A DNA stretch of 39,664 bases from positions 1 through 39,664 of the forward strand of contig DFIS01000080.1 of the NCBI GenBank assembly GCA_002372175.1, read 5' to 3'. Of the stretch, positions 3,353 through 19,057 are shown one piece after another; position 1 is the first letter of the stretch, and each line of letters begins with the position of its first letter. Below the pieces are notes generated by a model. It searched no databases. It saw only the letters and a list, made by a program, of their open reading frames with translations, and was not told where the DNA came from. The position numbers were made by a program, and so were the translations under genes. The stretch comes from Solobacterium sp. UBA3691. GTDB taxonomy: Bacteria > Bacillota_I > Bacilli_A > Erysipelotrichales > Erysipelotrichaceae.

Positions 3353-6220
3353 TCACCTGACGATCTCAAGACCATCTACGGTATTCAGTTTACCCTCGGC
3401 TGCCACTACACATACGGCAGCCTTTTTCATGCCCTCTTCGAGCCAGTCCGCCAGCTGTACAAAGTCCTCCGGCGTCGTATGCAGAAGCTCTTCACGCAGC
3501 TTTTTGCGGTATTCATACGTAATACCGCTGATCTGACGCAGATCTTCAAGACGTATTCTGGACTGCGGAGACTGCAGCGGATCACCGGCTGCTACAGCAC
3601 CGATGATATACGCGTCCAGCGGGGTATCGCCCCTGGCCAGCTCACGTGTGAATTCACCCAGTGTCTTTGTGATATGGATCGTATTCGCCGGATCGGGATC
3701 ACGGAAAGAGTATGCGGTAAGCGTACCGTCAGCTCCCACGGAAAGTCCGGTACCGTAGGCACCGCCCTTGACTCTGACTTCATTCCAGAGATAGCCATAC
3801 GTCAGGATATGACTCAATGCCCTGATCGCTCCGGAGATCCTGCCGCCGACATCCTTCAGGTTGAACGAAGCTGCACTGTAGGCAATACCTGCAGGAATGA
3901 CCATGCCCTCCTGCTTTCTATCTTCGATCGGGAAGTGTACAACACCTCTCTCGAATCTCTGTGTCTGGTACTTATCCGAAAGATCGGTCAGAGCTTTCAG
4001 ATTCTCTTCACCGGTCATGCTCAGGATCATGCGCTCCCTGTTGAACAGGATATCCCTGTACATCTCCAGATTGGCGATGAATTCCTCAGCTCTTTCATCA
4101 TAGTGTTCATACAGATCACTGACCCAGCAGATCGAGGCATAGCCATCGAGGTCTTCCCTGGCACTGCCGCCGGCACTGCACTGTGACGCTGTTCTGATCA
4201 TCGCCGCAAGATGACCGCTGCTGATCATCGCCTGTCTGTTGGCTTCGACCTCCTGTGCCAGAAGAGCCCTGATCATCTCCTTGTCGAAGATCGTCTTCTG
4301 GGTGATCTCCCATACCAGATCCATCGCCGTCTGCAGGTTCTTCTTCAGTACCTTGCCGGTCGCATACAGCAGCGGAATCGCCGCATCACGGTCTTCAGGC
4401 AGGGAACTGACCGTTGTCCCGAAAGCCAGTCCGCCAAGGTCTCTGCGGATGATCTGGCGCAGTTCTGTCAGGGTATGATCTTCGGTCGGAAGACTGCCGA
4501 GCAGATCCGCGAACTCACCGACTTCCGCCAGTGACTTCTTCGTAATACCGTTCATCAGGAAGTACATGCTGAAGTAGACGATACCTGTCTTCTCCTCCGG
4601 ATACAGCATGACCGGTATGCCCCTGTATTCACGCTTCTCCGGTTCATAACGCATCGGTTCTGCCGGTACATCACTGATCTTCAGCTGCGGCAATGTCGCC
4701 AGCTGTTCCGGTGTATCCGGTGTCTCCTGCCATTCATCCAGGACCCTGTTGATCTCCACGAAGGCATTAACATCTTCCCAGCTCTCTTTCGCCTTCTGCA
4801 GACGTGCTGCCTCTTCCGCTTCTCTTTCTTCACCGAGCGTCTTTGACGGTATGGCTGTCAGAATATTGACATCTTCTGCCAGAAGTCCCTCTCTGATCAG
4901 TTCTTCAAAGTATCCCTGATTCAGCTTCTCCCGCAGCTCATCGTAGTAATGTCCGGCATCGAGATACATCGTCGGATCACCATCATACAGCCAGCTTCTG
5001 AGCATCATCTCGGCATAGATGACACCGCTGGGTTCCTTGGGCTCATGGTAGCGGAACTCCATCCCGTTAAGGACTGCCTTTACCTCTTCCCTGTCGATAC
5101 CCTTTGTCACAATATCCGTCAGTACTTCTCTGACCGTCTTTAATACTTCGTCCTTCTTCTCAGGATCGGTATTTCTGACTGACAGTGTAATATACGGCTG
5201 GATCATCTCATCCATCAGGGCGATCTCCACATCCTGCCCAAGACCGCTGTCAATAATAGCCTTCTTTAACTGTGTCTCATTACTTCCGGTCAGTACACCC
5301 GAGATCACATTCCAGGCGATCTGTTTCTCCGGCTCCGTGTAGTCACCGACGATCTTGGCCAGTGTTACTACAGTCTTGGCACTTTCATCCTCATCCGGGG
5401 CGATCTCATAGATTACCGTACGGTCTTCAGCAGGCAGGATCTTCTGCATATCGATATGTACATGCATATCCCTGGCTTCATATTCCTGCAGTACTTCATC
5501 GATCCTTGTCAGTACGGTATCGATATCAAGATCTCCGTCCAGGAAGAAGTACGCATTGGAAGGATGATAGAATCTTCTGTGATCGGCAATAAACTGCTCA
5601 TAGGAAAGATCAGGAATATGCCTGGGATCACCTCCCGATACATACTGATAGCAGGTATCCCTGAACATCATTCTCTGCAGTTCATCGATAATGATCTCAT
5701 CCACGGAAGAGAAAGCACCCTTCATCTCGTTAAAGACAACACCCTTGTATATCGGTTCCTCTTCAGGATCTCTGATCTCATAGTGCCATCCCTCCTGATA
5801 GAAGATATTCGGATTTGTATAGATCGCCGGGTGGAATACCGCATCCAGGTAGACATCCATCAGGTTCAGGAAGTCCTGAGGATTCCTGCTGGATACCGGA
5901 TACATCGTCTTATCGTTGAAGGTCATCGCATTCAGAAACGTCTGCATACTCCCCTTTAACAATTCCACAAACGGTTCTCTCACAGGGTACTTCTTCGAGC
6001 CGTTTAAGACACTGTGTTCAAGAATATGAAAGACACCCGTATCATCCTCGGGTACGGTCTTAAACGCCACCGAGAACGTCTTATTCTCTTCATCACGCTT
6101 TAACCAGGCAAGCTTTGCGCCGGAGTGAGGATGTTCCATCACGATCAGCTCTGCCTGTATGTCATTAACCTTACGGATCTCCTTAACCGTAAAACCATGT
6201 ATGATCTCATTTATCTGCAT
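3353..6220 (-). CDS. M16C family zinc metallopeptidase (insulinase/PreP-like), 955 aa
   Basis: An inverted zinc-binding motif HxxEH (HILEHSV) lies near the N-terminus. The ~950-aa length and four-domain organisation are typical of M16C. Confidence 0.9.
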   Translation of the reverse strand: MQINEIIHGFTVKEIRKVNDIQAELIVMEHPHSGAKLAWLKRDEENKTFSVAFKTVPEDDTGVFHILEHSVLNGSKKYPVREPFVELLKGSMQTFLNAMTFNDKTMYPVSSRNPQDFLNLMDVYLDAVFHPAIYTNPNIFYQEGWHYEIRDPEEEPIYKGVVFNEMKGAFSSVDEIIIDELQRMMFRDTCYQYVSGGDPRHIPDLSYEQFIADHRRFYHPSNAYFFLDGDLDIDTVLTRIDEVLQEYEARDMHVHIDMQKILPAEDRTVIYEIAPDEDESAKTVVTLAKIVGDYTEPEKQIAWNVISGVLTGSNETQLKKAIIDSGLGQDVEIALMDEMIQPYITLSVRNTDPEKKDEVLKTVREVLTDIVTKGIDREEVKAVLNGMEFRYHEPKEPSGVIYAEMMLRSWLYDGDPTMYLDAGHYYDELREKLNQGYFEELIREGLLAEDVNILTAIPSKTLGEEREAEEAARLQKAKESWEDVNAFVEINRVLDEWQETPDTPEQLATLPQLKISDVPAEPMRYEPEKREYRGIPVMLYPEEKTGIVYFSMYFLMNGITKKSLAEVGEFADLLGSLPTEDHTLTELRQIIRRDLGGLAFGTTVSSLPEDRDAAIPLLYATGKVLKKNLQTAMDLVWEITQKTIFDKEMIRALLAQEVEANRQAMISSGHLAAMIRTASQCSAGGSAREDLDGYASICWVSDLYEHYDERAEEFIANLEMYRDILFNRERMILSMTGEENLKALTDLSDKYQTQRFERGVVHFPIEDRKQEGMVIPAGIAYSAASFNLKDVGGRISGAIRALSHILTYGYLWNEVRVKGGAYGTGLSVGADGTLTAYSFRDPDPANTIHITKTLGEFTRELARGDTPLDAYIIGAVAAGDPLQSPQSRIRLEDLRQISGITYEYRKKLREELLHTTPEDFVQLADWLEEGMKKAAVCVVAAEGKLNTVDGLEIVR

Positions 6221-6284
6221 AGTATTCCTGCCATTTCTAAGCCCATGGGCAATCTATGGATATTGTACCAACGGATAAGAGAAA

Positions 6285-6326
6285 GAGGCAATAAAACAAA
6301 ATACTCCTGTTGGACAAGAGTATTTC
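6285..6326 (-). terminator. Candidate weak rho-independent terminator downstream of the TIR gene 6554..9184 and upstream of the M16 peptidase gene
   Basis: An 8-bp stem AAATACTC/GAGTATTT (6299-6306 and 6318-6325) has an 11-nt loop. On the minus strand it is followed by UUUGUUUUAUU. The stem is AU-rich, so confidence is low. Confidence 0.3.
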
Positions 6327-6553
6327 TTTGCTGTCTCTCCCTGTTACTGCGGGACAGATATCGATTTACAGGACAATCAGCCACGGGGATGGGATGCATC
6401 ACATGACAAGTAACACAAACTTCTTCAATGCGTATTTCAGCAGAGAGTATCCCGCTAGATGTATGAAGAATTATCAAAAGATGATCAACTTCCGTACCGA
6501 TGCTCTAAGACATCATATTTCTTATTTAGAAACTGTAGAATTATAATTGCTGA

Positions 6554-9184
6554 TCAATTGATTTTCACCCACATAGCTGGACGGATCATGTACTCGTATT
6601 TTTGTTTAACAATCGGAGAATATCCATCAACGTATATACCATACAAGCCAATGCCTCCATCATGTACTCCAAAAGCAGCAGTATAAGGTTCTTGACCGGG
6701 CGAGCGCAGCCACCAATTAGAACCATTAGTGACATCGTTGACATAAACACCTTTCCCGAGTGTATATGGTGTTGCTTTTGCCAATCTTTCAGCATCAGAA
6801 TTAAAATACTGCTGAGCTTCCTGTATTGATAACAGGAATATCTTATCCTGTGTATCTTTTCCCGGATCTGTATTGTACTCCGGATTCTTGTCTGCTGTCA
6901 CAGTGCTTGTTTCAATGAGTGATTGTTCTTCACCGGTAAATGCTGATGAAATAAAATAACTATTCAACCATTTTCGAAGTGAACAAGTTTGCCATGTACC
7001 ATTCTCCCTTGATGTATCATATGGCTGACTGTCCAATCCGTATTCACTGATCAAAAGGATCCTGTTATCTTCTTTTGCTAAAACTTTCCATGTAATAGCT
7101 TCTTTGCCATTAGAAGTACTCGCATCCTGTTCATATGAACCAAATGTTACTATTTCTCCGGGCTTGGCAACCATAACTGTAACATACGGATTTTCTTCTC
7201 TAATAGATGCTGCCAGTTCAGCGCTGTCTTTATATCCATTCAAACCCATCAATATCTCATATGCGCCGGCATAATCTCCATTTTCTCGCATAGCAATTGC
7301 GGATTTATACTTATTGCTTGGAATTACCGTTGTTCTTATGATCACAAAAGCAACCACACAAAGAACCAAAACAGCAGTAACTATGCCAATTATGCTCTTT
7401 TTCTTTTTACGGGAGATTTCTTCCTGTTTTCTCTGAATCGCATACTGTCGCTCTATTTCTTTGCGATTCTCTTCTGTTAATCTGTCTATCTCCTTCTGGC
7501 AATACTCTGAATAACCGCCGCTTTCCTGATAACCCTTAAGCGAATCAAATACTGTTTTTGCTTTTTCAAAAGACGTTATATCTGTTGCGGCATTCATCGC
7601 AGTAATAGCTTGTGTATAGTCCAGATTTCTCCTTTGCTCTGCCTGCTCAGCCAATGCCTGCACTTCTTTATCTGCTTGTATAAGGAAAGCAGCATAATTA
7701 CTCTTCACCTTAGAAATACTGTTCTCATCTGTCTTTTTAGCAAGGGTGATACGCTCGTCCAAAATACGGTTTAATTCTGAGAGTTCATTTTCCAGCTTCT
7801 TCTTTGTTTCACCTTTAGCGTATTGTAATGCTCTGGTCAGATTACGTTCTGATTCCAATTCTTTTTGCAGCTTTGATTTTTGAATTCTTCTGCTTTGAAG
7901 ATAAGAGTCAAATCCAAGATCATATTGATATTGTCTCAGAATAGCTTCTCTGTCCAGGTATCCGTCAATACTGTATTTCTGTACTGCTGCATTAATATGA
8001 TCATTATCTTCCTGTCCTGCTTTTACTCGCTGGATGCCGGCATGTTTATACTCTTCTTTGTAATGATTAAACAAAGCTTCAAGATTTGGCTGACGGTTTT
8101 TCAGCAGAAGTTTTCCAAGATATGCTTCTGCAGATTCAGGCTCCTGATTCAGTGCTTCTTCAAAGAAACTATCGGCTTTATCCCATTCCTTGTCCTCAAG
8201 AGCTATCATGCCTCTTTTGACAAATGCCGAGGCACCACCTGAAGAATTGTTCTGAGTAACCGCCTTCTGAACAAACGGGGCTGCAGTCTCCTTTATAACC
8301 ACCTTTTTGATTCCACGAACCACATCATTGATAAATCCAATCTTACTCATGTCCTGTGCCTGGAGATGTGAGAATTCTTCAGGCAGGTCATATGCATCCA
8401 TATCTCTGTAGCAAGGAATCAGCAGCTTGGTACGGTCTTTTTTCATCAATTTCAGGAAACGTGACCATTCGTTCTTTACCCATACTGCATTGAAATACTC
8501 CGGTCTAGTGCCAATCACCAGCATTACTTTTGCTGTATTCAGTGCTGAGAAAATATACGGTTCATATTCTTTTCCCAGTTTATCTTCCAAAGTAATAGCC
8601 GCAAAGAATACTTTAAATCCTTCACGTGTCAGTTGGTAATAGATTTCATTGGCAATCACACTATCCTGTGTTCGTTTCCCAGATTCATCCGTCTCCTTAT
8701 AGCAGATGAAAACATCATATGGATCTTCTTTCTGTGCAAGGGCAAGGATTCCGCGCTGGATCTCATCGATCTCTTTAGCCTGAGCTTCATAGATTCCTCT
8801 TTGGGCAGTATCTGCGTAATATAATGCGTTCTTATAATCTTCATCCGCAGTGACTGATTCATATGACGCACGATGGCATGTCGGAACTCTCTTATACGTC
8901 ACCGGATCTTCAACATACTCAATACCGTACTTACAGAGGATAAGCCCCCAGTATGCTTCAGCTTCTGTTTCACTCCTCTGAAGGATCTTTTCATAGATCT
9001 CTGCTGCTTTATCAAACTCAGAGCGCATACGAAGCGTATTTGCTCTGTTGAAAAGCGTCTGCAAACCTTCATCATGAACAGAAGGAATTGTTTGTCTGGT
9101 ACCGCAGAACTCACATTCACATACCCTGCTTCCCTCTATAACGGTTAAATCACCGCCGCACATCTTACATTTCCATACCACCAT
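6554..9184 (-). CDS. Zinc-ribbon + TIR-domain + coiled-coil + single TM + C-terminal DUF6273-like domain protein (876 aa from the ATG at 9184; the ORF track extends to 9214)
   Basis: The N-terminus CKMCGG...CECEFCG forms a zinc ribbon. The TIR core DVFICYKETDESG...FKVFF...IFSALNTAKVMLVIGTRPEYFNAVWVKNEWSRFL spans about 8315-8722. A long K/E/Q-rich coiled-coil follows. A KKKK-SIIGIVTAVLVLCVVAFVIIRTT TM helix spans about 7328-7396. The C-terminal domain carries ITWKVLA, CSLRKWLN, KIFLLS and WWLRSPG motifs. AAGGAGA precedes the ATG at 9184, and this start aligns with the paralog start MVALKCKMC. Confidence 0.85.
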   Translation of the reverse strand: MVVWKCKMCGGDLTVIEGSRVCECEFCGTRQTIPSVHDEGLQTLFNRANTLRMRSEFDKAAEIYEKILQRSETEAEAYWGLILCKYGIEYVEDPVTYKRVPTCHRASYESVTADEDYKNALYYADTAQRGIYEAQAKEIDEIQRGILALAQKEDPYDVFICYKETDESGKRTQDSVIANEIYYQLTREGFKVFFAAITLEDKLGKEYEPYIFSALNTAKVMLVIGTRPEYFNAVWVKNEWSRFLKLMKKDRTKLLIPCYRDMDAYDLPEEFSHLQAQDMSKIGFINDVVRGIKKVVIKETAAPFVQKAVTQNNSSGGASAFVKRGMIALEDKEWDKADSFFEEALNQEPESAEAYLGKLLLKNRQPNLEALFNHYKEEYKHAGIQRVKAGQEDNDHINAAVQKYSIDGYLDREAILRQYQYDLGFDSYLQSRRIQKSKLQKELESERNLTRALQYAKGETKKKLENELSELNRILDERITLAKKTDENSISKVKSNYAAFLIQADKEVQALAEQAEQRRNLDYTQAITAMNAATDITSFEKAKTVFDSLKGYQESGGYSEYCQKEIDRLTEENRKEIERQYAIQRKQEEISRKKKKSIIGIVTAVLVLCVVAFVIIRTTVIPSNKYKSAIAMRENGDYAGAYEILMGLNGYKDSAELAASIREENPYVTVMVAKPGEIVTFGSYEQDASTSNGKEAITWKVLAKEDNRILLISEYGLDSQPYDTSRENGTWQTCSLRKWLNSYFISSAFTGEEQSLIETSTVTADKNPEYNTDPGKDTQDKIFLLSIQEAQQYFNSDAERLAKATPYTLGKGVYVNDVTNGSNWWLRSPGQEPYTAAFGVHDGGIGLYGIYVDGYSPIVKQKYEYMIRPAMWVKIN

Positions 9185-9265
9185 ACTTAAGTCTCCTTCG
9201 TAGTTTTCTGGCAAAAGCTATTCCTATTACATTTTTGGTTTATGATTCACCTATTTGTTATATTT

Positions 9266-10207
9266 CTATCCTTCAAAAATATCGGTCAAATGCTCATCCA
9301 AAAAGTTTTCTAGAGCAGCATTTACCAATCTCAGACACTTCAAATCCAAATCATTTTTAAACGCTATCAGCTGTATCGGTCTATTTGCATGAAACAGTGT
9401 GCACCGAAGGTAATATGACAGTTCACCGACGATAAATCCCTCTACGGTGATATCCTTTTTGACATGCTTTTCTATATAATGACTGATGATCTTATATGTT
9501 TTGGTTTCACTGTCCCGAATATCCTTCAGGAAGGTGTTTTCGCTGACTTCCTGCAGTGCCAAAAGCGGAGATTTTCCTAAGCTTTCTCGTTCTCTCTGTA
9601 TCAGCATTTCATTTCCAAGATGATATCGCCTTAAAATTCTCTCTATATTGGGTTTATCCTTATGTTTTTCAGCATCACGTCTGGATGAATAAAAACCATT
9701 AAATGCCATCCAAAGATTCTGAAACCGTTCTGTTTCATATGCTCTGCTTTTGCTGTACAAATATGCAGATAAAGCCGCGCTCTCACTTCCCTTTTCGGTT
9801 TTTGTTGCCGACATCGCTTTTTGAAGGAATTGAGTTTCCTTAACGTATTCCGGCAGGGGTCTCAACAATTTGGAATTGATCATCGAGTAAGGCATAAAGC
9901 TTGTATCGATAATCTCCTTACATTCATTCCCATCAATCACAGTTAATTCAAAGCATTGATTCTTGATAGGTGCTTCATATAGAAAAAGATGCAGGATCAT
10001 TGCACGCCTGATTCCTTCTCTCATGAGATTGATAAGATACTGATTATTTGTTTTTCTATAATCTTTACCAATCAAAGCACTGATCGTGTACTTATCCTTT
10101 GCTATCCGAACACTAATGTGATGGGTTCGCTGAAAAGAGAATTCAAACTTTTTAGCTCTTCTCAATTCATCATTACAGTTTACCTTTAACAAGTATTTCA
10201 GTTTCAT
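9266..10207 (-). CDS. Hypothetical 313-aa protein with a C-terminal Rx4H (HEPN-like) motif; possible Abi/HEPN-type RNase
   Basis: It is a clean ORF with island-typical AT-rich codon usage. The C-terminal YYLRCTLFHANRP fits HEPN Rx4-6H. It is predicted to be mostly alpha-helical. No other motif was recognised. Confidence 0.65.
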   Translation of the reverse strand: MKLKYLLKVNCNDELRRAKKFEFSFQRTHHISVRIAKDKYTISALIGKDYRKTNNQYLINLMREGIRRAMILHLFLYEAPIKNQCFELTVIDGNECKEIIDTSFMPYSMINSKLLRPLPEYVKETQFLQKAMSATKTEKGSESAALSAYLYSKSRAYETERFQNLWMAFNGFYSSRRDAEKHKDKPNIERILRRYHLGNEMLIQRERESLGKSPLLALQEVSENTFLKDIRDSETKTYKIISHYIEKHVKKDITVEGFIVGELSYYLRCTLFHANRPIQLIAFKNDLDLKCLRLVNAALENFLDEHLTDIFEG

Positions 10208-10277
10208 TCTTTTTCCTATTAACGTGACAGCCCTGAGGAACAGGGTGTTTTCACGTCTCTTATTGATCTGTTTTCAT

Positions 10278-10967
10278 TTACTTGTTTCGTGCACAAAGCA
10301 CATTTCTTTCTTTCAGCTGTGCAGTAATCTTTAAACAGCTTTTCTCTGCTTCTGAACTATTCTTTTCCGTCAGATATTTCTTCAATTTTTCCATCTCGTT
10401 CAGAAGATCATATTCATGCTGGATCGTCGCATCAGACGATACCGGATCACTATATTTAAACTCTTCTGTAAGATCCTGAAGTTTTTTCTTTAATGACCCA
10501 TCCTCACAAATACTAACTAATGCTGAACAGGCTGCCTGTAATGAACGCATGTTCGTAGTATCTTTCTTTATCTTTACTTCCTGTCGTTCTACTTCTTCTC
10601 TTGCTGCATCTGCTGCTACAGTACCTATAACAGCCAATGCTGCGGGCAGTATGTTGATCACGACAGCGATCCATGTCTTTATATATGGCGCAGCAATCAT
10701 CCCAATCAGACTGATCACCAACTGGGCAATCATATACATGACTCCTACACGTGCAATAGGAAAACCATAGAATTTACTTTTTGTTTCTGCTCCGTCAGCA
10801 AACGATATTTTCAGAACATACACCTGGAATACGATGGCAATTACACCAAACAGATATGAAATCCAGAAAACAGCATTTTTATTAAATGGAGCCGCAAACG
10901 CTATAACACTGAAGACGGCAAATATTACAGAAAGGATGATATACCGACGAAGTTCGTTTTTAGACAT
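10278..10967 (-). CDS. Hypothetical membrane protein, 229 aa. It has four N-terminal TM helices and a ~100-aa C-terminal coiled-coil/soluble domain.
   Basis: The hydrophobic helices are IILSVIFAVFSVIAFAA, FWISYLFGVIAIVFQVYVL, VGVMYMIAQLVISLIGMIAAPYI and IAVVINILPAALAVIGTVAA. Its start lies 2 nt after the stop of the upstream SPFH gene, which indicates translational coupling. Confidence 0.75.
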   Translation of the reverse strand: MSKNELRRYIILSVIFAVFSVIAFAAPFNKNAVFWISYLFGVIAIVFQVYVLKISFADGAETKSKFYGFPIARVGVMYMIAQLVISLIGMIAAPYIKTWIAVVINILPAALAVIGTVAADAAREEVERQEVKIKKDTTNMRSLQAACSALVSICEDGSLKKKLQDLTEEFKYSDPVSSDATIQHEYDLLNEMEKLKKYLTEKNSSEAEKSCLKITAQLKERNVLCARNK

Positions 10968-10969
10968 GT

Positions 10970-12820
10970 CTATTCACCTCTTCTCTTTCCGCATATATTG
11001 CAGAAGTTACCGATTATATTCTTGTTACCGCACGAGCAATCCCATGTTGCAGGAACCGACGGTTCCGGTCTCCTGGCTCCGCACATATTACAGAAATTGC
11101 CAATGATATTCTTATTGCCGCATGCACAGTCCCATGTATCCGGTTTAACAGGCTGCGGTCTTCTGGTTCCGCACATATTGCAGAAGTTACCGACGATATT
11201 CTTATTACCGCATGTACAGTCCCATGTATCTGCAACCGGCTGTGTACTTGTTGCAGGATTCGGTACTGCACCTGTCTGTGTCATGTTCATATTTTGGAAC
11301 ATACCGCCAATCTGCGGTGCAACTGCATTCATTGCAGCAAGTCCTACACCAAGACCAAGCATGTCACCCATAACATTGGAGCCCCCGCCTGCAGAGATTG
11401 CCGGTCCCATATTCCCGATTCCTTCAGCATATGCTTTCTGCACTTCAGCCTGCAGTACGTCCCTTTGAGAATATCCCTTGGCAGCCATAACCTCTGCTTC
11501 TGTTAAACCTGCCATTCTCTGTGCCTGCGCTTCCGCCTGGGCAGCAATGACTCTTCTTTCAGCTTCACGTCTGGCGATCTCCGTTTCAGTCGTCTGTCTC
11601 TGCAGTTCAGCTTCACGGCGTGCTGCTTCGATCGTCGCTCTGCTTTGTTCCTGCGCGGTTCTGTACTGAGTCTCTGCCTGTGCCTGTACAGTCTTTATCG
11701 TTGCATCTGCCTGCACAACTCTTGCCTGAAGGGTAATTGTATGCAGTTCTCTTATCCGTTTGAAATTCGGATCATTTTCCGGAAGCACCACACTTGTTAC
11801 ATATAACTGAGGGATGGTTAAACCATATTCTTCAAATCCCGGAAGAATCTTCTGTCTGAGATTTTCAGATATAAGATCCAGCTTCTCATCAATCTCCAAA
11901 AGATCAATATTCTCATTTTTAATTACTGAAGACAGATTGGTTTTTACAGCATTTGCGATTAATGGCCGGAAGGATGCCTGAAGTGATTTTGTCATACCTT
12001 CCCCACCGTCCCATGAAACTCCTTTTGTTGTTCCTACAAGCTTTACAAGCAGTTTCCTGGCATTAGATACCTGTAGATTCATTTCACCGGATGCTCCGAT
12101 CTCCAACGGTGTACCGGTCAATGGATCAATGAAGCGTACTTTTTCCGGTGTCCCCCACTTAATAGCCATCTGAACAGTCTTATTAATAAAATACACTTCA
12201 GAGTGGAAAGTCCTGTCTGTATCTGTAGGCAGCTGATAAATAGAATCCAAAATCGGAAGTTTCTGAGTTTCAAGTGTGTATCTGCCCGGTCCAAACAGAT
12301 CTAACGCCTGGCCATCTCTGAAAAAAACCGCTTCCTGACTTTCGTGCACGATCAACTGAGATCCCATATTGAAATCTTCTATAGGATGCTTCCAGATAAA
12401 AGTATTATTATCTCCTTCATATTTGATGATGCTTGCCAGACCGTCTTTTCTCATCTTTTCAGCCATCAGGCGTTCCGGAACATTATTCACAAAGTCACAA
12501 ACTGGACATGTATAGGAAGATGCCGCCTTGCTGGTGATCAGTTTCACACCACATTGGGCGCAGGAAAATTCTGCCATTTTATCTTGGCCTTCCATCGTAT
12601 TGATTGGTTCTCCGCAGACAGGACACTTCGCCTTTGCTCCTTTTGACTGATCAAAAACAACATCATTGCTGCAGTGAGGGCATTTTCTGCTTATAAGTTT
12701 ATCCATACGAACATTAATCGTGTAACCGCAGGAACAATCAATTTTCTTTCTTGCAAAGAACCCACTGCTTGCTTCTACATATTTGCCGCAGTTCGGACAC
12801 TCCATTACGAATTTAGACAT
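10970..12820 (-). CDS. SPFH/band-7 family protein (Band_7_1/COG4260-like), 616 aa, with three N-terminal CxxC...CxxC zinc ribbons and three C-terminal tandem 30-aa RanBP2-like zinc-ribbon repeats
   Basis: The N-terminal ribbons are CPNCG...CSCG, CPHCS...CPVCG and CAQCG...CPVCD. The SPFH-like core runs about aa 130-380. A Q/A/E/R-rich coiled-coil (ATIKTVQAQAETQYRTAQEQ...) is followed by a Gly/Met-rich linker. The repeats are 3x TWDCxCGNKNIxGNFCNxCGxRRP. A GAGGGAGA RBS precedes the ATG at 12818-12820. Confidence 0.85.
   Translation of the reverse strand: MSKFVMECPNCGKYVEASSGFFARKKIDCSCGYTINVRMDKLISRKCPHCSNDVVFDQSKGAKAKCPVCGEPINTMEGQDKMAEFSCAQCGVKLITSKAASSYTCPVCDFVNNVPERLMAEKMRKDGLASIIKYEGDNNTFIWKHPIEDFNMGSQLIVHESQEAVFFRDGQALDLFGPGRYTLETQKLPILDSIYQLPTDTDRTFHSEVYFINKTVQMAIKWGTPEKVRFIDPLTGTPLEIGASGEMNLQVSNARKLLVKLVGTTKGVSWDGGEGMTKSLQASFRPLIANAVKTNLSSVIKNENIDLLEIDEKLDLISENLRQKILPGFEEYGLTIPQLYVTSVVLPENDPNFKRIRELHTITLQARVVQADATIKTVQAQAETQYRTAQEQSRATIEAARREAELQRQTTETEIARREAERRVIAAQAEAQAQRMAGLTEAEVMAAKGYSQRDVLQAEVQKAYAEGIGNMGPAISAGGGSNVMGDMLGLGVGLAAMNAVAPQIGGMFQNMNMTQTGAVPNPATSTQPVADTWDCTCGNKNIVGNFCNMCGTRRPQPVKPDTWDCACGNKNIIGNFCNMCGARRPEPSVPATWDCSCGNKNIIGNFCNICGKRRGE
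10991..11260. repeat. Three tandem direct repeats of 90 bp, high DNA identity, in-frame within the 3' end of the SPFH gene
   Basis: Units begin at 10991, 11081 and 11171 (gcaYatattRcagaaRttRccgaY...cagtcccatgt). They encode the 30-aa zinc-ribbon repeats TWDC(T/A/S)CGNKNI(V/I)GNFCN(M/I)CG. The opposite-strand ORF 10998..11468 shows the same periodicity and is an artefact. Confidence 0.9.
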
Positions 12821-12939
12821 TATAATTCTCCCTCTTCAGTGCTTTTACTTATCTCCTGAATCACTTCATTAAAAACAGTCAGACTGTTCTTCTTGTTAAT
12901 TGGTATATCAAGAATTTTTGCGTCATGATCCATATTCAT
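12820..12939 (-). CDS. Possible small ORF (39 aa, MNMDHDAKILDIPINKKNSLTVFNEVIQEISKSTEEGEL) translationally coupled to the SPFH gene
   Basis: Its TAA stop shares one nucleotide with the SPFH ATG (TAATG). There is no convincing RBS and no recognisable domain. It lies in a 332-bp AT-rich intergenic region. The longer 64-aa version in the ORF track is unlikely. Confidence 0.2.
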   Translation of the reverse strand: MNMDHDAKILDIPINKKNSLTVFNEVIQEISKSTEEGEL

Positions 12940-13152
12940 TTCTGCTGATAGCCTACAAATATATACCGATATTATTTTGCCGATTTTTTGCGATCTACCA
13001 CGATATATGAACATTGATCTTTTGACTTTGTTATTACAGCAAGTTCGCTCTGTCCTGCCTTACTTCCGTAAATCTCAAATACATTGCTATGTGATTATGG
13101 GATCGACGCTTTGCAACATTTCCCGGGCTTCGCTGGATTTCTGATTTTAGGA

Positions 13153-15738
13153 TTAGTCGATTTTCACCCATAAAGCGGGGCGGACCGTGTTACTGTCATC
13201 ATCCACGGAGTCGCCGATCACATCGACAAGAACAGAGATCTTAGCAGCAAACCCGGAATCGCTGCCGGGCGACCGCAGCCACCAGGAACACATTCCTTTG
13301 TCATTTGTATAAGCTCCATTCTTTTTTGCGTATGGCGTTGCTTTAGCACTTCTATTTTCATCGGATTTGAAATATTTGTTTACTTCAGGCACAGATAAGA
13401 GAAATATCTTATCCTGTGTATTCTTACCAGGGTCTGCAGGATACTCAGGATTCTTATCCGCAGTTACTTTTGTCGTAAGAATCCGTGCTTTTTCCTGTCC
13501 ATTAAACACAGTATTATAGAACTCTTTATTCAACCATTTTCTTATCGAACATTTTTCCCATGTTATACTTTCGTATTCTTCGTTGTATGGCTTCGCATCA
13601 ATTCCATCTTCTGTAATCAGCAGTGCTCTGTCTTTTTTAACTTCAAGTATTCGCCATTTAATTGGTTTCTTCTGAGAATCATATTGATAAGTGCCAAACC
13701 CTTGACTTATTATTTGAGCTTTATTAATTAACGGGTTTATTGCATTTATAATCATTGCCTTTGCAGAGACAGTATTATTTTGATGTATGATTACTGCTTT
13801 CTTTTCCGGCTTTGGCTTTTGTACGGGTTTATCTGCTGGCTTGGTCACTGGTTTCGTTTCAATGAGTGTTTTTTTCAAAGCCGCAATATTATCCTCCAAC
13901 TCTTTTCTCTTTTTGCCGGAGAACAAACCTTTCAAATTCTTTTTTTCAGATTCTAATTTCTTTATTTTCTCTTCCAATTCACCTTTTTTCTTCTCTGCGG
14001 TTATACATGATTCTTCATAATCAATTTTGGATTGTTCCCATTTCTTTACAGCTAGATTATTATCGTTTTCCCATTGACTAATATCTCTCTGGTAAGAATC
14101 TTCAGCGTCTTTTTCCGCTTTCTTTCTTGCTGTTTCTTCCTCTATTTTTATTTTGGAAATCTGATCAGCATTTTTTTCTAAACGATCAGAAATATCTCTT
14201 TTAAACAATTCTGACTGTTCAGCCAATAATTTTTCTGCATTTTTTCTCTTTTCTAATTCTTTTGACATTTCAGATTTAAGAAGATCCCTGAGTTTGTCGA
14301 TCACTTTGTTTATTTCTTTTTCAACATTTCCATCTTTGTATCTGCATGCGCGTTTGTAATCGCGGTTGTTAAGAAGTTTCCCAAGACCTTCAACTGATAA
14401 ATTTCTGAATGCCTCCCTATAGCACACAGGATCCTCTAGTGTAAATGTTATTTTTTCAGGATGTAAGCCAATCAGCAATTTATCCAGTTCCTGATCAGAG
14501 AATTCATCGAGGAAGTGCCGAGAATCTGCTTCCCTTGCATATGCATGCGCCTCAAATGGAAGCGTCTGAACCCATAAATGTTCTTGCGCGTGCTTTTTAA
14601 TCTGGTCAAATAATTTTTTTGCCAATTCTGCTGAGCAATTCGAATTATACACGCACAGTACTTTCCCCCAGTAAGCAGCGCCACATTCTGCATCATTGTT
14701 AAGAACCTGCTCATAAAACTCATTAGCTCTTGTAAAATCACCATCTTCAATTGCCATATTGCCACGTTTCAATAGTGACTGTGTCTGCGCGTTCAAAACT
14801 GACAGCCCGCTGTCAGTATTTTTTTCTTCTTTTTCCTTATTATCTTTTCTCAGAATTTTATCGATCCCTCTCAAAAGATCCTGCATTGCACCTACTTTTC
14901 CCATATCTTGTGCCTGCAGTCTTGCAAATTCCTTCGGCATATCATATGCATCCAGATTTTTATATACCGGGATCATTGTTTTCTTTTCTCCTGAAGCTAT
15001 AAGATGAAGATATCTACTCCATTCGTTCTTTACCCATACCGCATCAAAATATTCAAATTTTGTTCCAACGGCCAGCATCAGTTTGGCGGAATGAAGTGCC
15101 GCAAAGATATATGGTTCATATTCCGTGCCGAGTTTATCTTCTAACGTAATTCTGGAGAAGAATACCCGATATCCCTTTTCAGTTAAAGCATTATAAATAT
15201 CCTGTGCCAGAACACTGTCCAGTGTCCTTTCTCCGTTTTCATCGGTTTCTTTGTAGCAAATAAAGATATCATACGGCTGTTCATTGGAAGATACTTCTAT
15301 TATGCCTTTTCTCAGATCTTCAATTTTCTTAGCCTCGTCACGATATACACGCTTTGCAACTGCATCAGCATATTCCATGACCATCTCATAATTATTGTCA
15401 TCAAAAATACTTTCAAACGAGGATCTGTGGCAGGTAGGCACTTTCTTTCCGGTTAGCGGATCATCAACATACTCTATTCCATACTTGCAAAGAACCAGTC
15501 CCCAGTATGCTTCTGCTTCTTCCTGAAATTCAGAAATGATAGCTTCATATACACCGGCAGCTTTGTCGAATTCATTATTAAAACGAAGTCTGTTTGCCCG
15601 TGTAAACAAATTCATCTTTTTTTCATTATCCGCATTTGGAATTGTCTGCAAAGTTCCGCAGAATTCACATTCACATACTGTACTGCCTTCTATCGGTGTA
15701 AGATCTCCACCGCACATTTTACATTTCAGAGCCACCAT
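13153..15738 (-). CDS. Paralogous zinc-ribbon + TIR + coiled-coil + C-terminal DUF6273-like domain protein, 861 aa, with no predicted TM helix
   Basis: It is about 60-65% identical to the 6554..9184 product over the first ~300 aa, from MVALKCKMCGGDL to the TIR core DIFICYKETDENG...AVWVKNEWSRYL at about 14854-15276. The middle is extremely K/E-rich and coiled-coil (ELEKRKNAEKLLAEQSELFKRDISDRLEKN...). The C-terminus carries ITWEKCSIRKWLN, KIFLLSVPE and WWLRSPG motifs. GGAGGG precedes the ATG. Confidence 0.85.
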   Translation of the reverse strand: MVALKCKMCGGDLTPIEGSTVCECEFCGTLQTIPNADNEKKMNLFTRANRLRFNNEFDKAAGVYEAIISEFQEEAEAYWGLVLCKYGIEYVDDPLTGKKVPTCHRSSFESIFDDNNYEMVMEYADAVAKRVYRDEAKKIEDLRKGIIEVSSNEQPYDIFICYKETDENGERTLDSVLAQDIYNALTEKGYRVFFSRITLEDKLGTEYEPYIFAALHSAKLMLAVGTKFEYFDAVWVKNEWSRYLHLIASGEKKTMIPVYKNLDAYDMPKEFARLQAQDMGKVGAMQDLLRGIDKILRKDNKEKEEKNTDSGLSVLNAQTQSLLKRGNMAIEDGDFTRANEFYEQVLNNDAECGAAYWGKVLCVYNSNCSAELAKKLFDQIKKHAQEHLWVQTLPFEAHAYAREADSRHFLDEFSDQELDKLLIGLHPEKITFTLEDPVCYREAFRNLSVEGLGKLLNNRDYKRACRYKDGNVEKEINKVIDKLRDLLKSEMSKELEKRKNAEKLLAEQSELFKRDISDRLEKNADQISKIKIEEETARKKAEKDAEDSYQRDISQWENDNNLAVKKWEQSKIDYEESCITAEKKKGELEEKIKKLESEKKNLKGLFSGKKRKELEDNIAALKKTLIETKPVTKPADKPVQKPKPEKKAVIIHQNNTVSAKAMIINAINPLINKAQIISQGFGTYQYDSQKKPIKWRILEVKKDRALLITEDGIDAKPYNEEYESITWEKCSIRKWLNKEFYNTVFNGQEKARILTTKVTADKNPEYPADPGKNTQDKIFLLSVPEVNKYFKSDENRSAKATPYAKKNGAYTNDKGMCSWWLRSPGSDSGFAAKISVLVDVIGDSVDDDSNTVRPALWVKID

Positions 15739-15905
15739 GATGATCCCTCCATTTCCCCTTATAATTGATTAAGATTATCTATTTATCGCAATTCGCTCAA
15801 TCTGGACTAAAACGTGTACTTTTTTGCTTGGTAATATGTCTAAATCAAATTTTAACATATACCGCTCTTTATGCGCATAACAATAAGGTACTTAGAAGCT
15901 AATAC

Positions 15906-16597
<692 letters not shown>

Positions 16598-16681
16598 TCA
16601 TCCATGTTTTCTGCGCATGCATATATGAAAAAGTCACCTGTATGTAACCCTTGATTTGATACAGTTGACTTTCTTTCTTTA

Positions 16682-17647
16682 TTATTTGTTTACAACGTTT
16701 ACCGGTTCACCCTGCAGGTAACCTTTGATGTTATCTACCGTCATGTCCATGATACGCTGTCTGGCTTCCTTTGCGCCCCAGGACATATGCGGTGTAATGA
16801 TGCAGTTCTTTGCGGTAAGCAGAGGATTATCACCCTTGATCGGCTCGGTGCTGGCGACGTCTACACCGGCTGCGGCGACCTTCCCTCTGTCCAGCGCATC
16901 CGCAAGATCCTGTTCAACGATCAGCGGTCCCCTGGAGTTATTCAGGATGATCACACCGTCCTTCATCTTTGCGATACTGTCCTTGTTGATGATCCCCTGT
17001 GTCTCCGGGAATAACGGACAGTGCAGGGCGATCACATCACTCTTTGTGAACAGTTCATCCAGTGTCACATAGTCTGCGATCTGTCTGCCTGCCTCATTCT
17101 CAAAGCTGTCATATGCCAGTACATGCATACCCAGTGCTTTGGCGATCTCACCGGTCCTTCTGCCGATGCGTCCGAAGCCGATGATGCCAAGTGTCTTGCC
17201 GGCCAGTTCGATCAGCGGATAATCCCAGTAACAGAAGTCGGGGCAGTTCTCCCACTTACCTTCCTTGACAGTTCTGTCATGGTGACCGATATGATGACAG
17301 ATCTCCAGCAGTAAGGCAATCGCAAACTGGGCTACGGAATCTGTACCGTATGTCGGTATATTGCATACCGGGATGCCCTTCTCTTTCGCATATGCGGTAT
17401 CGACAATGTTGTATCCGGTTGCCAGCACACTGATCATCCTGATCTGCGGACATGCGTCCAGTACATTCTTCGTGATCGGTGTCTTGTTGGTCAGTACGAC
17501 TTCTGCATCCCCGATGCGGCTGATGATCTCCTCTTCATCATGCAGAGGAGTTCTCTCATAGACTGTCAGTTCACCAAGTGCTTCTACACCTTCCCAGGAG
17601 AGATCTCCGGGATTCTCTGTATATCCGTCCAGTACTACGATCTTCAT
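16682..17647 (-). CDS. D-isomer-specific 2-hydroxyacid dehydrogenase (glycerate/hydroxypyruvate reductase-like), 321 aa
   Basis: The GIIGFGRIGRRTG Rossmann motif and the catalytic-domain pattern of the D-2-hydroxyacid dehydrogenase family are present. It starts MKIVVLDGY. Confidence 0.85.
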   Translation of the reverse strand: MKIVVLDGYTENPGDLSWEGVEALGELTVYERTPLHDEEEIISRIGDAEVVLTNKTPITKNVLDACPQIRMISVLATGYNIVDTAYAKEKGIPVCNIPTYGTDSVAQFAIALLLEICHHIGHHDRTVKEGKWENCPDFCYWDYPLIELAGKTLGIIGFGRIGRRTGEIAKALGMHVLAYDSFENEAGRQIADYVTLDELFTKSDVIALHCPLFPETQGIINKDSIAKMKDGVIILNNSRGPLIVEQDLADALDRGKVAAAGVDVASTEPIKGDNPLLTAKNCIITPHMSWGAKEARQRIMDMTVDNIKGYLQGEPVNVVNK

Positions 17648-17650
17648 CTC

Positions 17651-19057
17651 TCACTCCACTGCGTAGATCACATCCAGAGGCTGATCCAGTCTGTCCAGTA
17701 CCTCGGCAACGATCTTATTCTTGTTTACCTTGATCTCGGCAGGAATACCGTTCATCTTATCAGCGATCTCCTTCAGTTCCTGCATCGTCTTCATCGGCAG
17801 CCTGGCCTTGGCAAACTGCTCAACGAGATCTTCTCTCTTCGGATTGACCGCAATACCATACTGTGTAACCAGGATATCCACATCCTTGCCGGGTGTAGAT
17901 ACCGTCAGTACTTTGTCTACGACGACCGGCATTCTGGCTCTGCTTACCGGAGCTACGATCATCGTCAGTTTCGCTTCTTCCGCCACATCGGTATGTCCGC
18001 CGGAGCCGCCGATGATATAACCACGGGAATCCGTATGTACATTGACGTTGAAATCCGTATCGATCTGGGTTGCGCCTAAGACAACAACATCCAGGTTTCT
18101 TGCGGCATTACTTTTAGCCGTAGGACTGGCATACTGTGTGGAAGAGATCTCGAAGTGACCGGGATCATCTCTTAACGATTCAACAGCCTTCAGGTCAAAG
18201 CACTGTACATCCTGGATCGCCTCAAAGAGTCCTTCTCTGTACATATCCACGATATAGCCGGTAATACCGCCGAGGGCATAGCTTCCCTTGATACCGCGTT
18301 CTTTCATGATGTCACGGACATATGCTGCACAGGCAAGCGAAGCCCCGCCGGCACCGGTCTGGAACGAGAAACCATCCTTCAGAAGACCTGAGGCATCGAT
18401 TGCCTTGGCCGCAAGCTCCGCAATACGCAGAGATACAGGGTCCTTTGTTACCTTTGTTGTGCTGGCAACGATACCCTGGGGATCACCGATCGCATCAACT
18501 TCGACAACATAGTCGACATAGTTTTCAGGTACCGAGAAATCCGTCAGAGGATACGGTACCAGGTTATCGGTAATGACAACAACTTTATCCGCAAAGTATG
18601 CATCCTCAAAGGCATAGCCTAGAGAACCGCAGGCAGACTTGCCGATCTTACCTGTAAAGTTACCCATCGGGTCACTTGTCGGTGCTGCGATAAACGCAAC
18701 ATCGATATGCGACTTGCCGGCAGCCAGTGAACTCGGTCTGCCTCCGTGTGTACGGAAGATCAGCGGCTTCTTCATATATCCTTCGGATACTGTCTTACCG
18801 ACTTCAATACTCATGTAGTTTGTCTCTACGCACGTTACGACACCGCTCTTGATATGTTCAGCCAACGGCGCATGTCCGGGATGGATCGAGCTGGCATTGA
18901 TCGTCAGATCCTTAAGACCGAGCTTGGCGATCTCATCCATGACCAGATTCAGCACAAAGTCACCGGAGCGCAGATGATGATGGAACGAGATGGTCATGCC
19001 ATCCCTGACACCCGCAAGCTTTACAGCTTCGGCAATACTTCCGACAAGTTTACTCAT
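17651..19057 (-). CDS. citF: Citrate lyase alpha subunit / citrate CoA-transferase
   Basis: DGMTISFHHH, HAPLAEHI, IDVAFIAAP and FQTGAGG match E. coli CitF closely. Its start overlaps the citE stop by 4 nt. Confidence 0.9.
   Translation of the reverse strand: MSKLVGSIAEAVKLAGVRDGMTISFHHHLRSGDFVLNLVMDEIAKLGLKDLTINASSIHPGHAPLAEHIKSGVVTCVETNYMSIEVGKTVSEGYMKKPLIFRTHGGRPSSLAAGKSHIDVAFIAAPTSDPMGNFTGKIGKSACGSLGYAFEDAYFADKVVVITDNLVPYPLTDFSVPENYVDYVVEVDAIGDPQGIVASTTKVTKDPVSLRIAELAAKAIDASGLLKDGFSFQTGAGGASLACAAYVRDIMKERGIKGSYALGGITGYIVDMYREGLFEAIQDVQCFDLKAVESLRDDPGHFEISSTQYASPTAKSNAARNLDVVVLGATQIDTDFNVNVHTDSRGYIIGGSGGHTDVAEEAKLTMIVAPVSRARMPVVVDKVLTVSTPGKDVDILVTQYGIAVNPKREDLVEQFAKARLPMKTMQELKEIADKMNGIPAEIKVNKNKIVAEVLDRLDQPLDVIYAVE

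Follow-up and report, generated by a model that had tools for sequence, protein, structure and literature searches.

SARM1, AbTir, TcpB, ThsB and plant TIRs all use the glutamate of the TIR-domain WxxxE motif as their catalytic base. The presence of this residue is the accepted predictor of TIR catalysis (10.64898/2026.04.20.719644; PMC9092222). A published structural criterion asks, upon superposition, for a Glu Cα no further than about 3 Å from ThsB E85 and a side chain that can turn towards the NAD+ pocket (10.64898/2026.04.20.719644). In AbTir the C-helix motif (W204, E208) is required for activity, facing inward only upon substrate binding and assembly (PMC10641520). The same residue is kept in TLR2, IL-1R9 and IL-1R10, where NADase activity is undetectable (10.64898/2026.04.20.719644). 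Human SARM1 (E642, W638, G601) is an ARM-SAM-TIR octamer; AbTir and TcpB/BtpA join a coiled coil to a TIR that is constitutively active as an isolated domain, and have been studied as virulence factors; Thoeris ThsB (E85) is small and soluble; TLR1/2/6/10 couple a ligand-binding domain through a single transmembrane (TM) helix to a cytoplasmic TIR; and the PspA-YdjGHI (SamGHI) system of Bacillus subtilis encodes a Band_7_1 SPFH protein together with Zn-ribbon and membrane partners.

The locus described here belongs to a family in which a sole member, Eubacterium eligens EUBELI_RS07950 (C4Z355), has been assayed in vitro. That protein has the same Zn-ribbon/TPR/TIR head, with its TIR at residues 157–293, and NADase activity was seen with neither of its two constructs (PMC9092222 Table S2, Weagley 2022). 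The assay used the isolated, bead-bound TIR at 10 μM NAD (PMC9092222), and because it was negative the microbiome members of the family are labelled 'Inactive' in the same source. This one negative entry is all that we found on the family in the searchable literature, which yielded no account of a system joining TIR with SPFH (Band 7) or DUF6273; the receptor-like TIR family is apparently undescribed and is absent from PADLOC-DB v2.

Two TIR paralogs in a Solobacterium locus

The window (the whole 39,664-nucleotide stretch of Solobacterium sp. UBA3691 DNA analysed here) encodes two paralogs that are 77–80% similar to each other by self-BLAST. Paralog 1 (6554..9184, minus strand; delimited by its ORF and Pfam matches) is an 876-residue protein formed, in order, by a Zn ribbon, TPR-like helices, a TIR domain, a TPR, a coiled coil, one TM helix and a DUF6273 domain. 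Its ORF can be read from an upstream TTG (window 6554–9214); the true start is the ATG at 9184, which has a ribosome-binding site (GAAGGAGA) upstream and is the start used by all homologues. Gene callers choose it too where metagenome contigs carry the identical sequence, and three of these contigs yield the exact 876-residue product. Paralog 2 (13153..15738, minus strand; 861 residues) repeats the head and the DUF6273 tail, and hydropathy gives it no TM helix. The amino-terminal Zn ribbon of paralog 1 (9104..9169, minus strand; C6, C9 ... C24, C27) is modelled as β-hairpins, and its CxxC pairs are invariant or nearly so in the family.

The TIR domain of paralog 1 (8294..8722, minus strand) spans residues of about 155–297, from βA (158–162) to αE (284–295), and that of paralog 2 (14848..15276, minus strand; Pfam TIR_2 E 2.9e-11) is 62% identical to it. 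Both lie above the TIR_2 (PF13676) cut-off of 28 bits, at 45.3 bits for paralog 1 and 44.4 bits for paralog 2, and the fold is the flavodoxin-like one of TIR domains, ordered βA-αA-βB-BB loop-αB-βC-αC-βD-αD-βE-αE. A sequence-only reading of this DNA had given the range 8315–8722, which corresponds to residues 155–290, the TIR of paralog 1. It had also ended the domain at ...WSRFL, which is too early: that stretch is αC (234–249), and βD (254–259), αD, βE and αE follow it.

Position of the WxxxE glutamate

The motif stretch reads PEYFNAVWVKNEWSRFL in paralog 1 and FEYFDAVWVKNEWSRYL in paralog 2. In each, a minus-strand GAA codon (8468..8470 in paralog 1; 15022..15024 in paralog 2) encodes the glutamate of WVKNEW, as the sequence-only reading had said. 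Its residue numbers were half right: E239 is correct for paralog 2, and the E249 given for paralog 1 counts from the TTG and is likewise E239 when numbered from the ATG. The tryptophan of the paralog 1 motif is W235 (TGG, 8480..8482, minus strand), which falls in the SARM1 W638 column, and the BB-loop glycine is G204 (GGA, 8573..8575, minus strand).

In a search of PDB sequences with a TIR-only family profile, WVKNEW lines up with WPAREL (Brucella TcpB/BtpA), WCLMEL (flax L6/L7) and WCQYEL (a TLR15/TLR2 TIR). This profile took the place of one built on all 300 residues of the head, whose top matches were spurious (WD40 and designed TPR). The best PDB sequence match is the TLR15/TLR2 TIR (E 7.7e-5), with the W-C-x-Y-E form of the motif in common; the sequence similarity to AbTir and TcpB is marginal (E about 0.1), and a fold search gives AbTir-3AD a TMt of 0.73. 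Against SARM1 (its sequence checked against the PDB), default local hhalign aligned βA–βB only (36 columns, probability 51%). Global and low-MAC modes lengthened the alignment through WxxxE, pairing W235/E239 with W638/E642 at a posterior confidence that is low there, and we therefore cross-checked the result with a nine-sequence MAFFT alignment. In this, the tryptophan, the glutamate and the BB-loop glycine each occupy one column with SARM1, TcpB, L7 and two gut TIRs that have proved active as NADases in experiments; the G204 column is also glycine in TLR15/2 (G601 in SARM1) and is arginine in the inactive E. eligens protein. SARM1 carries a 15-residue insert before αC that the window family lacks, and the family in turn adds 6–7 residues in the βA–αA loop.

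An AlphaFold model sets E239 within the first turn of αC. The sequence-only reading's placement of the residue at the position of the catalytic glutamate of TIR NAD+ hydrolases is supported by sequence and profile alignment. By these alignments, both paralogs have a canonical TIR_2 domain with E239 as its αC WxxxE glutamate.

Conservation and the case for catalysis

W-x-x-N-E-W occurs in all 267 family proteins fetched (267/267) and in 115 of 115 complete TIR copies from 79 related genomic loci, a recurrence that marks the shared motif as homologous rather than coincidental. The bare presence of the glutamate is textbook, expected in a bacterial TIR. The whole domain is highly conserved, at about 80% identity over more than 3,000 clusters, so that conservation of one residue is expected with or without catalysis and the glutamate adds little. 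The sequence-only reading had argued from the glutamate in both paralogs for enzymes rather than pure scaffolds. The residue is there, and the step from it to an enzyme is only partly supported, given this overall conservation, the glutamate kept by TLR2, IL-1R9 and IL-1R10, and the inactive E. eligens protein. W235, E239 and G204 are jointly invariant in the family. The αC motif withstands divergence: members of 60–63% identity retain it, and the E. eligens protein keeps WVKNEW despite differences at 19 of the 46 family-invariant positions. Sequence and profile alignment find the glutamate, tryptophan and BB-loop glycine of the TIR NADase class in these domains, which may be catalytic.

The explanation that we favour as a whole, and hold with moderate confidence, is that E239 is the catalytic-position glutamate of a receptor-built, latent NADase that clustering activates. 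As monomers the TIR heads would be latent. They would be brought together by a ligand bound to the carboxy-terminal domain or by a disturbance of the membrane that the SPFH module encoded alongside passes on, and clustering would complete a composite active site in which the BB loop of one TIR lies over the WxxxE pocket of the next. NAD+ would be cleaved after assembly, giving NAD+ depletion or an ADPR-derived signal, and the output would probably be an anti-phage or other conflict response.

Alternatively, the heads may be non-catalytic assembly modules like those of TLR2, MyD88 and MAL, nucleating hetero-oligomers among the paralogs and with the SPFH protein and the 229-residue membrane protein of the operon, and retaining the WxxxE helix for TIR–TIR contacts instead of catalysis. 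We consider this unlikely. No purely scaffolding TIR has, to our knowledge, been demonstrated in bacteria, and true scaffolds here would be the first bacterial TIRs of that type that we know of. The joint invariance of tryptophan, glutamate and BB-loop glycine also speaks against it. The negative E. eligens assay speaks against catalysis; the domain tested is atypical, being 43–46% identical in the TIR, with arginine for the BB-loop glycine and a differing LQAQDM motif, and we rejected the result as settling the question of activity, the BB-loop glycine being among the 19 altered positions. Moreover, true TIR enzymes in many cases show no activity as isolated domains before they assemble. In apo AbTir, W204 and E208 face outward (PMC10641520). 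Were the heads latent enzymes, as we favour, the TIR NADase capacity of gut microbes would currently be underestimated, and bacteria would possess a class of transmembrane TIR receptors, with a bearing on the origin of receptor-coupled TIR signalling.

Receptor-like architecture

The predicted TM helix of paralog 1 (7337..7393, minus strand; IIGIVTAVLVLCVVAFVII; hydropathy 3.3) is preceded by RKKKK and predicted to run N-in/C-out. The charge bias holds family-wide, with a K/R value of 6.6 before the helix and 1.9 after it (positive-inside), and at least one TM helix is predicted in 97 of 133 family proteins (73%). Beyond the helix lies a C-type-lectin-like DUF6273 domain (6563..7069, minus strand; Pfam E 6.3e-30), predicted to be extracellular; Pfam finds this domain in both paralogs. 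Among 58 representatives the carboxy-terminal domain varies, with DUF6273 in 15, LRR_5 in 5, RCC1 in 3, LRR_8 in 3, Ank in 2 and MORN in 1. The predicted family plan is a conserved cytoplasmic Zn-ribbon/TPR-like/TIR head, a coiled-coil stalk, usually one N-in/C-out helix and an interchangeable carboxy-terminal binding domain.

The DUF6273 fold and its role in phage diversity-generating retroelement (DGR) targets have been described (PMC10743442, PMC11792537). We rejected a reading of the present tails as DGR targets: self-BLAST of the window gave no TR/VR-like repeat, and there is no reverse transcriptase among the ORFs of 6000–18000.

Paralog 1 is predicted to join an ectodomain to a cytoplasmic TIR through one TM helix, which recalls TLR1/2/6/10, and some relatives of the window proteins have LRR tails. 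The polarity is inverted, however, with an amino-terminal TIR; the ectodomain in the window is DUF6273 and not LRR, and paralog 2 lacks the helix. No shared descent of the architecture is implied. AbTir and TcpB/BtpA have no membrane anchor or SPFH partner, and SARM1 has neither the amino-terminal Zn-ribbon/TPR module nor the TM helix and extracellular tail of the window family. Compared with ThsB, the window proteins are 3–5 times longer, with membrane topology, a swappable ectodomain and no ThsA-like effector.

It is possible, and we propose it only tentatively, that these proteins form an abundant, undescribed immune or sensing system, a Toll-like receptor turned around, in gut and rumen Clostridia: a swappable ectodomain would sense a phage or surface ligand, the TM helix and coiled coil would relay the event, the head would cleave NAD+ upon clustering, and the SPFH and four-TM proteins would act as obligate partners or effector. 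The interest of the locus lies in the family, in which a TIR head under very strong constraint carries interchangeable binding domains, is mostly membrane-anchored and is linked to an SPFH module.

Operon partners

The operons of the family carry one to five TIR genes alongside co-oriented genes for two partners, an SPFH protein with Zn ribbons and a membrane protein of four helices. In the window, the first partner (10970..12820, minus strand; Pfam E 2.5e-37) is an SPFH protein of the Band_7_1, YdjI/SamI type with amino- and carboxy-terminal Zn ribbons, 54% identical to the neighbour at a related locus, L004. A co-oriented SPFH homologue is found in 20 of the 25 related loci that are fully flanked. 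The second partner (10278..10967, minus strand) is a 229-residue protein whose model has four TM helices and, on the cytoplasmic side, a bundle of four helices; it recurs, co-oriented, in 18 of the same 25 loci, each time directly behind the SPFH gene. Its bundle is conserved and contains an invariant YSDP motif. Searches of Pfam, PADLOC, NCBIfam and PHROG assign the protein to no family, and a PDB fold search with its model gives nothing under E 0.15. A 313-residue gene lies between the partners and paralog 1, with no match in any library or the PDB and a homologue in 1 of the 79 loci; we treated it as unrelated cargo outside the system.

One sub-case of a catalytic head is Thoeris-like signalling, in which the TIRs would make a cyclic ADPR isomer or a related signal and the SPFH-held 229-residue protein would be the effector, binding that signal and breaching the membrane. 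The conservation of that protein beside the TIR genes is in its favour, as are its four TM helices, helical bundle and YSDP motif, and the newly described Thoeris types V–XI commonly have TM effectors whose sensor domains are novel (10.64898/2025.12.03.692087). Weak matches to ThsB and ThcB4 models point the same way but fall far under the curated cut-offs (PADLOC ThsB1, E 0.0012, 16 bits; NCBIfam ThcB4, 25.9 bits against 220). ThsB, moreover, is no 860-residue membrane receptor, and the 229-residue protein has no detectable similarity to a known effector or ligand-binding fold. No effector with a recognisable signal-binding domain (SLOG, Macro, SAVED, STING or SIR2) is encoded in the window or at two other loci, L004 and L007, where the neighbours are again the SPFH and four-TM proteins. 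An SPFH protein with a membrane partner fits a YdjI/SamI-type membrane-stress module equally well, and we regard the Thoeris-like sub-case as quite improbable.

A further alternative is a different chemistry or role. The glutamate would be catalytic with the TIR acting on another substrate, such as NADP or nucleic acids (like the 2',3'-cNMP synthetase activity of plant TIRs), or the system would be a surface-sensing or envelope-stress signalling device rather than an immune one. In B. subtilis the YdjI/SamI type of SPFH protein has been linked to signalling of membrane stress (PMC8581546, 10.64898/2026.02.06.704340), and the lectin, LRR and ankyrin tails might recognise glycans of the host or other bacterial cells. 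Unlike SamGHI, the window has Zn ribbons as part of the SPFH chain, lacks a PspA gene and couples the module to TIR proteins. We found no positive evidence for another substrate, and the co-location with defence genes and the island context described below better fit a role in conflict; we judge this alternative very unlikely.

Genomic setting and extent of the family

The paralogs sit in a low-GC island with a recombinase remnant. Around 18 related loci, about 14 of 148 flanking genes match PADLOC models, for example Pycsar, PARIS AriA, PDC-S01, MADS and Dpd, a raw count with no formal control. A phage origin was rejected, since 2.9 million viral contigs contain just 2 loci of the family, a scarcity that also suits a non-immune role. 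The family, found in gut Clostridia and specific to Clostridia, is very large, with roughly 6,000 hits, including a shell at E 1e-10 to 1e-3, and more than 3,000 clusters at 50% identity. A set of 185,579 species-representative genomes contains at least 587 of its loci.

The catalytic-position glutamate

The two paralogs are encoded on the same strand (paralog 1, ORF 6554–9214 (−) including an upstream TTG, with the ATG at 9184; paralog 2, ORF 13153–15738 (−)) and share 38% identity overall, far more across their first 300 residues. A sequence-only reading had placed, by eye, the glutamate of a WxxxE NADase motif in each TIR domain, within the range 8315–8722 for paralog 1 (residues 155–290, which is the TIR domain). 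Reading from the DNA bears out both codons, GAA at 8470–8468 (−; Glu of VWVKNEWSRF) and at 15024–15022 (−; Glu of VWVKNEWSRY). The former numbering of the first as E249 counted from the TTG; because GAAGGAGA precedes ATG 9184, this start agrees with the M-x-x-x-KCKMCGG start common to all homologues, and an identical 876-aa product is called from its equivalent on three metagenome contigs, we take ATG 9184 as the true start, making the glutamate E239 in both paralogs.

Both proteins match Pfam TIR_2 (45.3 and 44.4 bits for paralogs 1 and 2, threshold 28), and an AlphaFold2 model of the first 300 residues (50 homologues, pLDDT 82.6) shows the canonical TIR order: βA (158–162), αA (173–187), βB (192–196), a low-confidence BB loop (197–207), αB (208–217), βC (220–225), αC (234–249), βD (254–259) and αE (284–295). 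W235 and E239 sit within the first turn of αC, and ~55 further TIR residues follow WSRFL, where the domain had been thought to end. Foldseek against the PDB ranks SARM1 and the AbTir–3AD complex highest (TMt 0.73), followed by TRR-2, Roq1, RPS4, TIR-STING and SPARTA TIR-APAZ. The βA–αA loop adjoins the NAD+ pocket in known TIR enzymes; in both paralogs (residues ~164–175) it carries a 6–7-residue insertion, ETDESGKRTQDS, relative to all reference TIRs in a MAFFT alignment, with R171, T172, D174 and S175 invariant in the family.

Residue equivalence, as judged from alignments, puts E239 at the catalytic glutamate position and upholds the placement made by eye. When a TIR-only family profile is run against PDB sequences, WVKNEW falls opposite WCQYEL of a TLR15/TLR2 TIR (E 7.7e-5), WCLMEL of flax L6/L7 and WPAREL of Brucella TcpB/BtpA. 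With SARM1 (query identical to PDB SARM1 residues 563–699), hhalign in default mode aligns βA–βB alone; its extended/global mode pairs W235/E239 with W638/E642, at low posterior confidence there. MAFFT alignment of nine sequences (both paralogs, a Eubacterium eligens relative, SARM1, TcpB, L7, TLR15/2 and two gut-bacterial TIRs proven to make v-cADPR-x and ADPR, the sequences of these two being taken from PMC9092222 Table S2) gives one column apiece to the Trp, Glu and BB-loop Gly. AbTir needs W204 and E208 of this 'C-helix WxxxE motif' to be active, and both residues swing inward only when the assembly has bound substrate (PMC10641520); two recent surveys use the glutamate as the criterion for predicting TIR catalysis (10.64898/2026.04.20.719644; PMC9092222). 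At residue level the finding is an ordinary one, a known catalytic motif in a new TIR.

Conservation and the assayed relative

WxxxE occurs in all 267 family proteins fetched and in all 115 complete TIR copies from 79 genomic loci; the family counts 6093 cluster representatives when the limit is E≤1e-3, and 3035 when it is E≤1e-30. Retention of the glutamate in both paralogs had been read as arguing for an enzyme. The residue does hold the catalytic position, but its conservation proves less than that: the whole TIR is ~80% identical across the family (47 of 146 alignment columns invariant), and one conserved residue therefore adds little. Some specificity does attach to the motif: the divergent E. 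eligens protein, which departs from the family at 19 of 46 invariant positions, still has the motif's W, V, N, E, W and R; members at 60–63% identity also keep WxxxE. The glutamate is necessary, not sufficient, for TIR catalysis, since TLR2, IL-1R9 and IL-1R10 possess it and show no activity, the side chain reportedly facing away from the pocket (10.64898/2026.04.20.719644).

The main rival reading is a non-catalytic scaffold TIR. Besides the domain-wide conservation, it draws on sequence affinity (the best PDB sequence match of the TIR-only profile is a TLR2-type TIR) and on a negative assay. The 160 isolated TIR domains assayed by Weagley et al. 2022 (~138 aa, Strep-tagged, bead-bound, 10 μM NAD; PMC9092222) included two constructs of E. 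eligens EUBELI_RS07950/C4Z355, scored NADase 'No', product 'None' (Table S2); microbiome proteins of the family were accordingly labelled 'Inactive' by nearest neighbour. This protein is a family member, starting MGALKCKMCG, with a TIR at 157–293 containing DVWVKNEWNRYL. Its TIR is only 43–46% identical to those of the window and has Arg at the BB-loop Gly position, a glycine otherwise invariant in the family and present in both paralogs and in every active enzyme aligned (SARM1, TcpB, L7 and the two active gut TIRs). Enzymes activated by assembly are, moreover, often silent when their TIR domains are isolated. For these reasons the assay weakens the enzyme reading without settling it, and the family-wide label may rest on an atypical member. 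We regard a pure scaffold as rather unlikely and lean, by a modest degree, towards a latent NAD+-cleaving TIR activated by assembly within a receptor-like protein.

Architecture and predicted topology

Family proteins share a constant head (Zn ribbon C6/C9/C24/C27, TPR-like helices, a conserved β-hairpin and the TIR) and vary throughout beyond ~residue 300; family-wide, the head protein is ~80% identical and the tails are unrelated. Among 58 representatives, C-terminal Pfam domains include DUF6273 (15), BspA-type LRR_5 (5), RCC1 (3), LRR_8 (3), ankyrin (2), MORN (1) and FtsK-gamma (1). Between our paralogs, head DNA is 77–80% identical in blocks (8465–8596/15019–15150, 8874–8966/15428–15520 and 9084–9184/15638–15738) and the tails are far more diverged, a pattern that would permit tails to be exchanged through recombination. 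DUF6273, a lectin-like (C-type) binding domain, is known from phage receptor-binding and DGR target proteins (PMC10743442, PMC11792537, 10.1101/2024.10.15.618418); self-BLAST of the window revealed no DGR template repeat, and the ORFs of the island include no recognised reverse transcriptase. The DUF6273 tails (13162–13632 and 6563–7069, both (−)) match PHROG families, one annotated 'Hoc-like head decoration' (E 3.8e-6), in agreement with the domain's use as a gut-phage binding module.

At least one hydrophobic helix follows the TIR in 97 of 133 long representatives. The 75 one-helix members average 6.6 Lys/Arg in the 15 residues before the helix against 1.9 after it, a bias from which an N-in/C-out topology is predicted, placing the variable domain (median 257 residues beyond the helix) outside the cell. 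Paralog 1 conforms (predicted helix 598–616, RKKKK just before); paralog 2 has no such helix, though its DUF6273 tail is as in paralog 1. Roughly one family member in four lacks a TM helix, and 9 of 19 loci with at least two scorable paralogs mix both kinds, so soluble and membrane forms could work together. The likeness to Toll-like receptors is architectural, with polarity inverted. As a system this is a TIR fused to a sensor, a known kind; for the combination of Zn-ribbon/TPR head, TM helix, swappable ectodomain and SPFH operon we found no description in the literature.

Operon partners and a possible mechanism

Three same-strand genes lie between the paralogs, encoding an SPFH protein (10970–12820 (−)) of Band_7_1 (YdjI/SamI) type with multiple Zn ribbons, a 229-aa protein (10278–10967 (−)) and a 313-aa orphan (9266–10207 (−)). 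Two unrelated metagenome contexts likewise place two or three tandem TIR paralogs beside a Band_7_1 protein, one with a gene of ~230 aa after it. At least 587 loci exist; in the 79 studied, from species-representative genomes (Oscillospiraceae, Acutalibacteraceae, Ruminococcus, Lachnospiraceae, Faecousia and others), homologues of the SPFH and 229-aa proteins occur in 50 and 44, and in 20 and 18 of the 25 fully flanked loci. In these 25 the genes always share one orientation, arranged as [TIR]n-SPFH-229aa-[TIR]n, and the TIR genes number one to five. The 229-aa protein is modelled as four TM helices with a cytoplasmic four-helix bundle and matches no known family or fold. In B. subtilis, Zn-ribbon and membrane partners recruit SPFH proteins of the YdjI/SamI type to build a membrane-stress sensor (PMC8581546, 10.64898/2026.02.06.704340).

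If the TIR is indeed a latent enzyme, a ligand on the variable tail, or membrane disturbance passed on by the SPFH module, would trigger assembly of TIR heads and activate NAD+ cleavage, the output being NAD+ depletion or an ADPR-derived signal that might act on the 229-aa membrane protein. Our data show the motif, fold, conservation, architecture, predicted topology and synteny; from these we infer catalysis, trigger, output and biological role.

Genomic context

Both paralogs lie in a low-GC island (~6.2–16.6 kb, GC 0.37–0.42 versus ~0.51), at whose edge lies a serine recombinase (resolvase) gene (15906–16567 (−)). Two reading frames share its domain (Pfam Resolvase positions 1–105 in ORF 15986–16567, 111–144 in ORF 15906–16412), which probably makes it a frameshifted remnant. 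None of the PADLOC systems is matched by the TIR proteins themselves; by the tests applied this is not Thoeris, with scores below threshold and no ThsA-type effector. Across 18 loci, ~14 of 148 flanking genes match PADLOC models (including Pycsar, AriA, PDC-S01, PDC-S48, MADS, DpdF and PD-T4-2), a count without a control that suggests the related loci are defence islands. Hardly any family members occur on viral contigs. In another genome, related locus L007 (1–17470; also L008) carries three tandem TIR paralogs and the SPFH gene, flanked by genes for two BspA-type LRR_5 proteins, an AAA_15/AAA_23 protein and a HerA/DUF87 ATPase of 880 aa; it has the look of a larger conflict island.

Searches of Pfam, PADLOC, NCBIfam, PHROGs and PDB sequences gave no match for the 313-aa ORF, which has a homologue in only one of the 79 loci and is probably cargo; it contains RCTLFH, an Rx4H with HEPN-like spacing. 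The SPFH protein has about four N-terminal CxxC pairs and, at its C terminus, three tandem W-D-C-x-C-G-N-K-N-I-x-G-N-F-C-N-x-C-G zinc-finger repeats, resembling the RanBP2 type, encoded by 79–86% identical direct DNA repeats (10979–11230). A small ORF without a family match (12820–13014 (−)) is called by gene callers on the identical metagenome contigs; it runs into the start codon of the SPFH gene (ATGA) and is 64 aa long, or 39 aa if read from an internal ATG.
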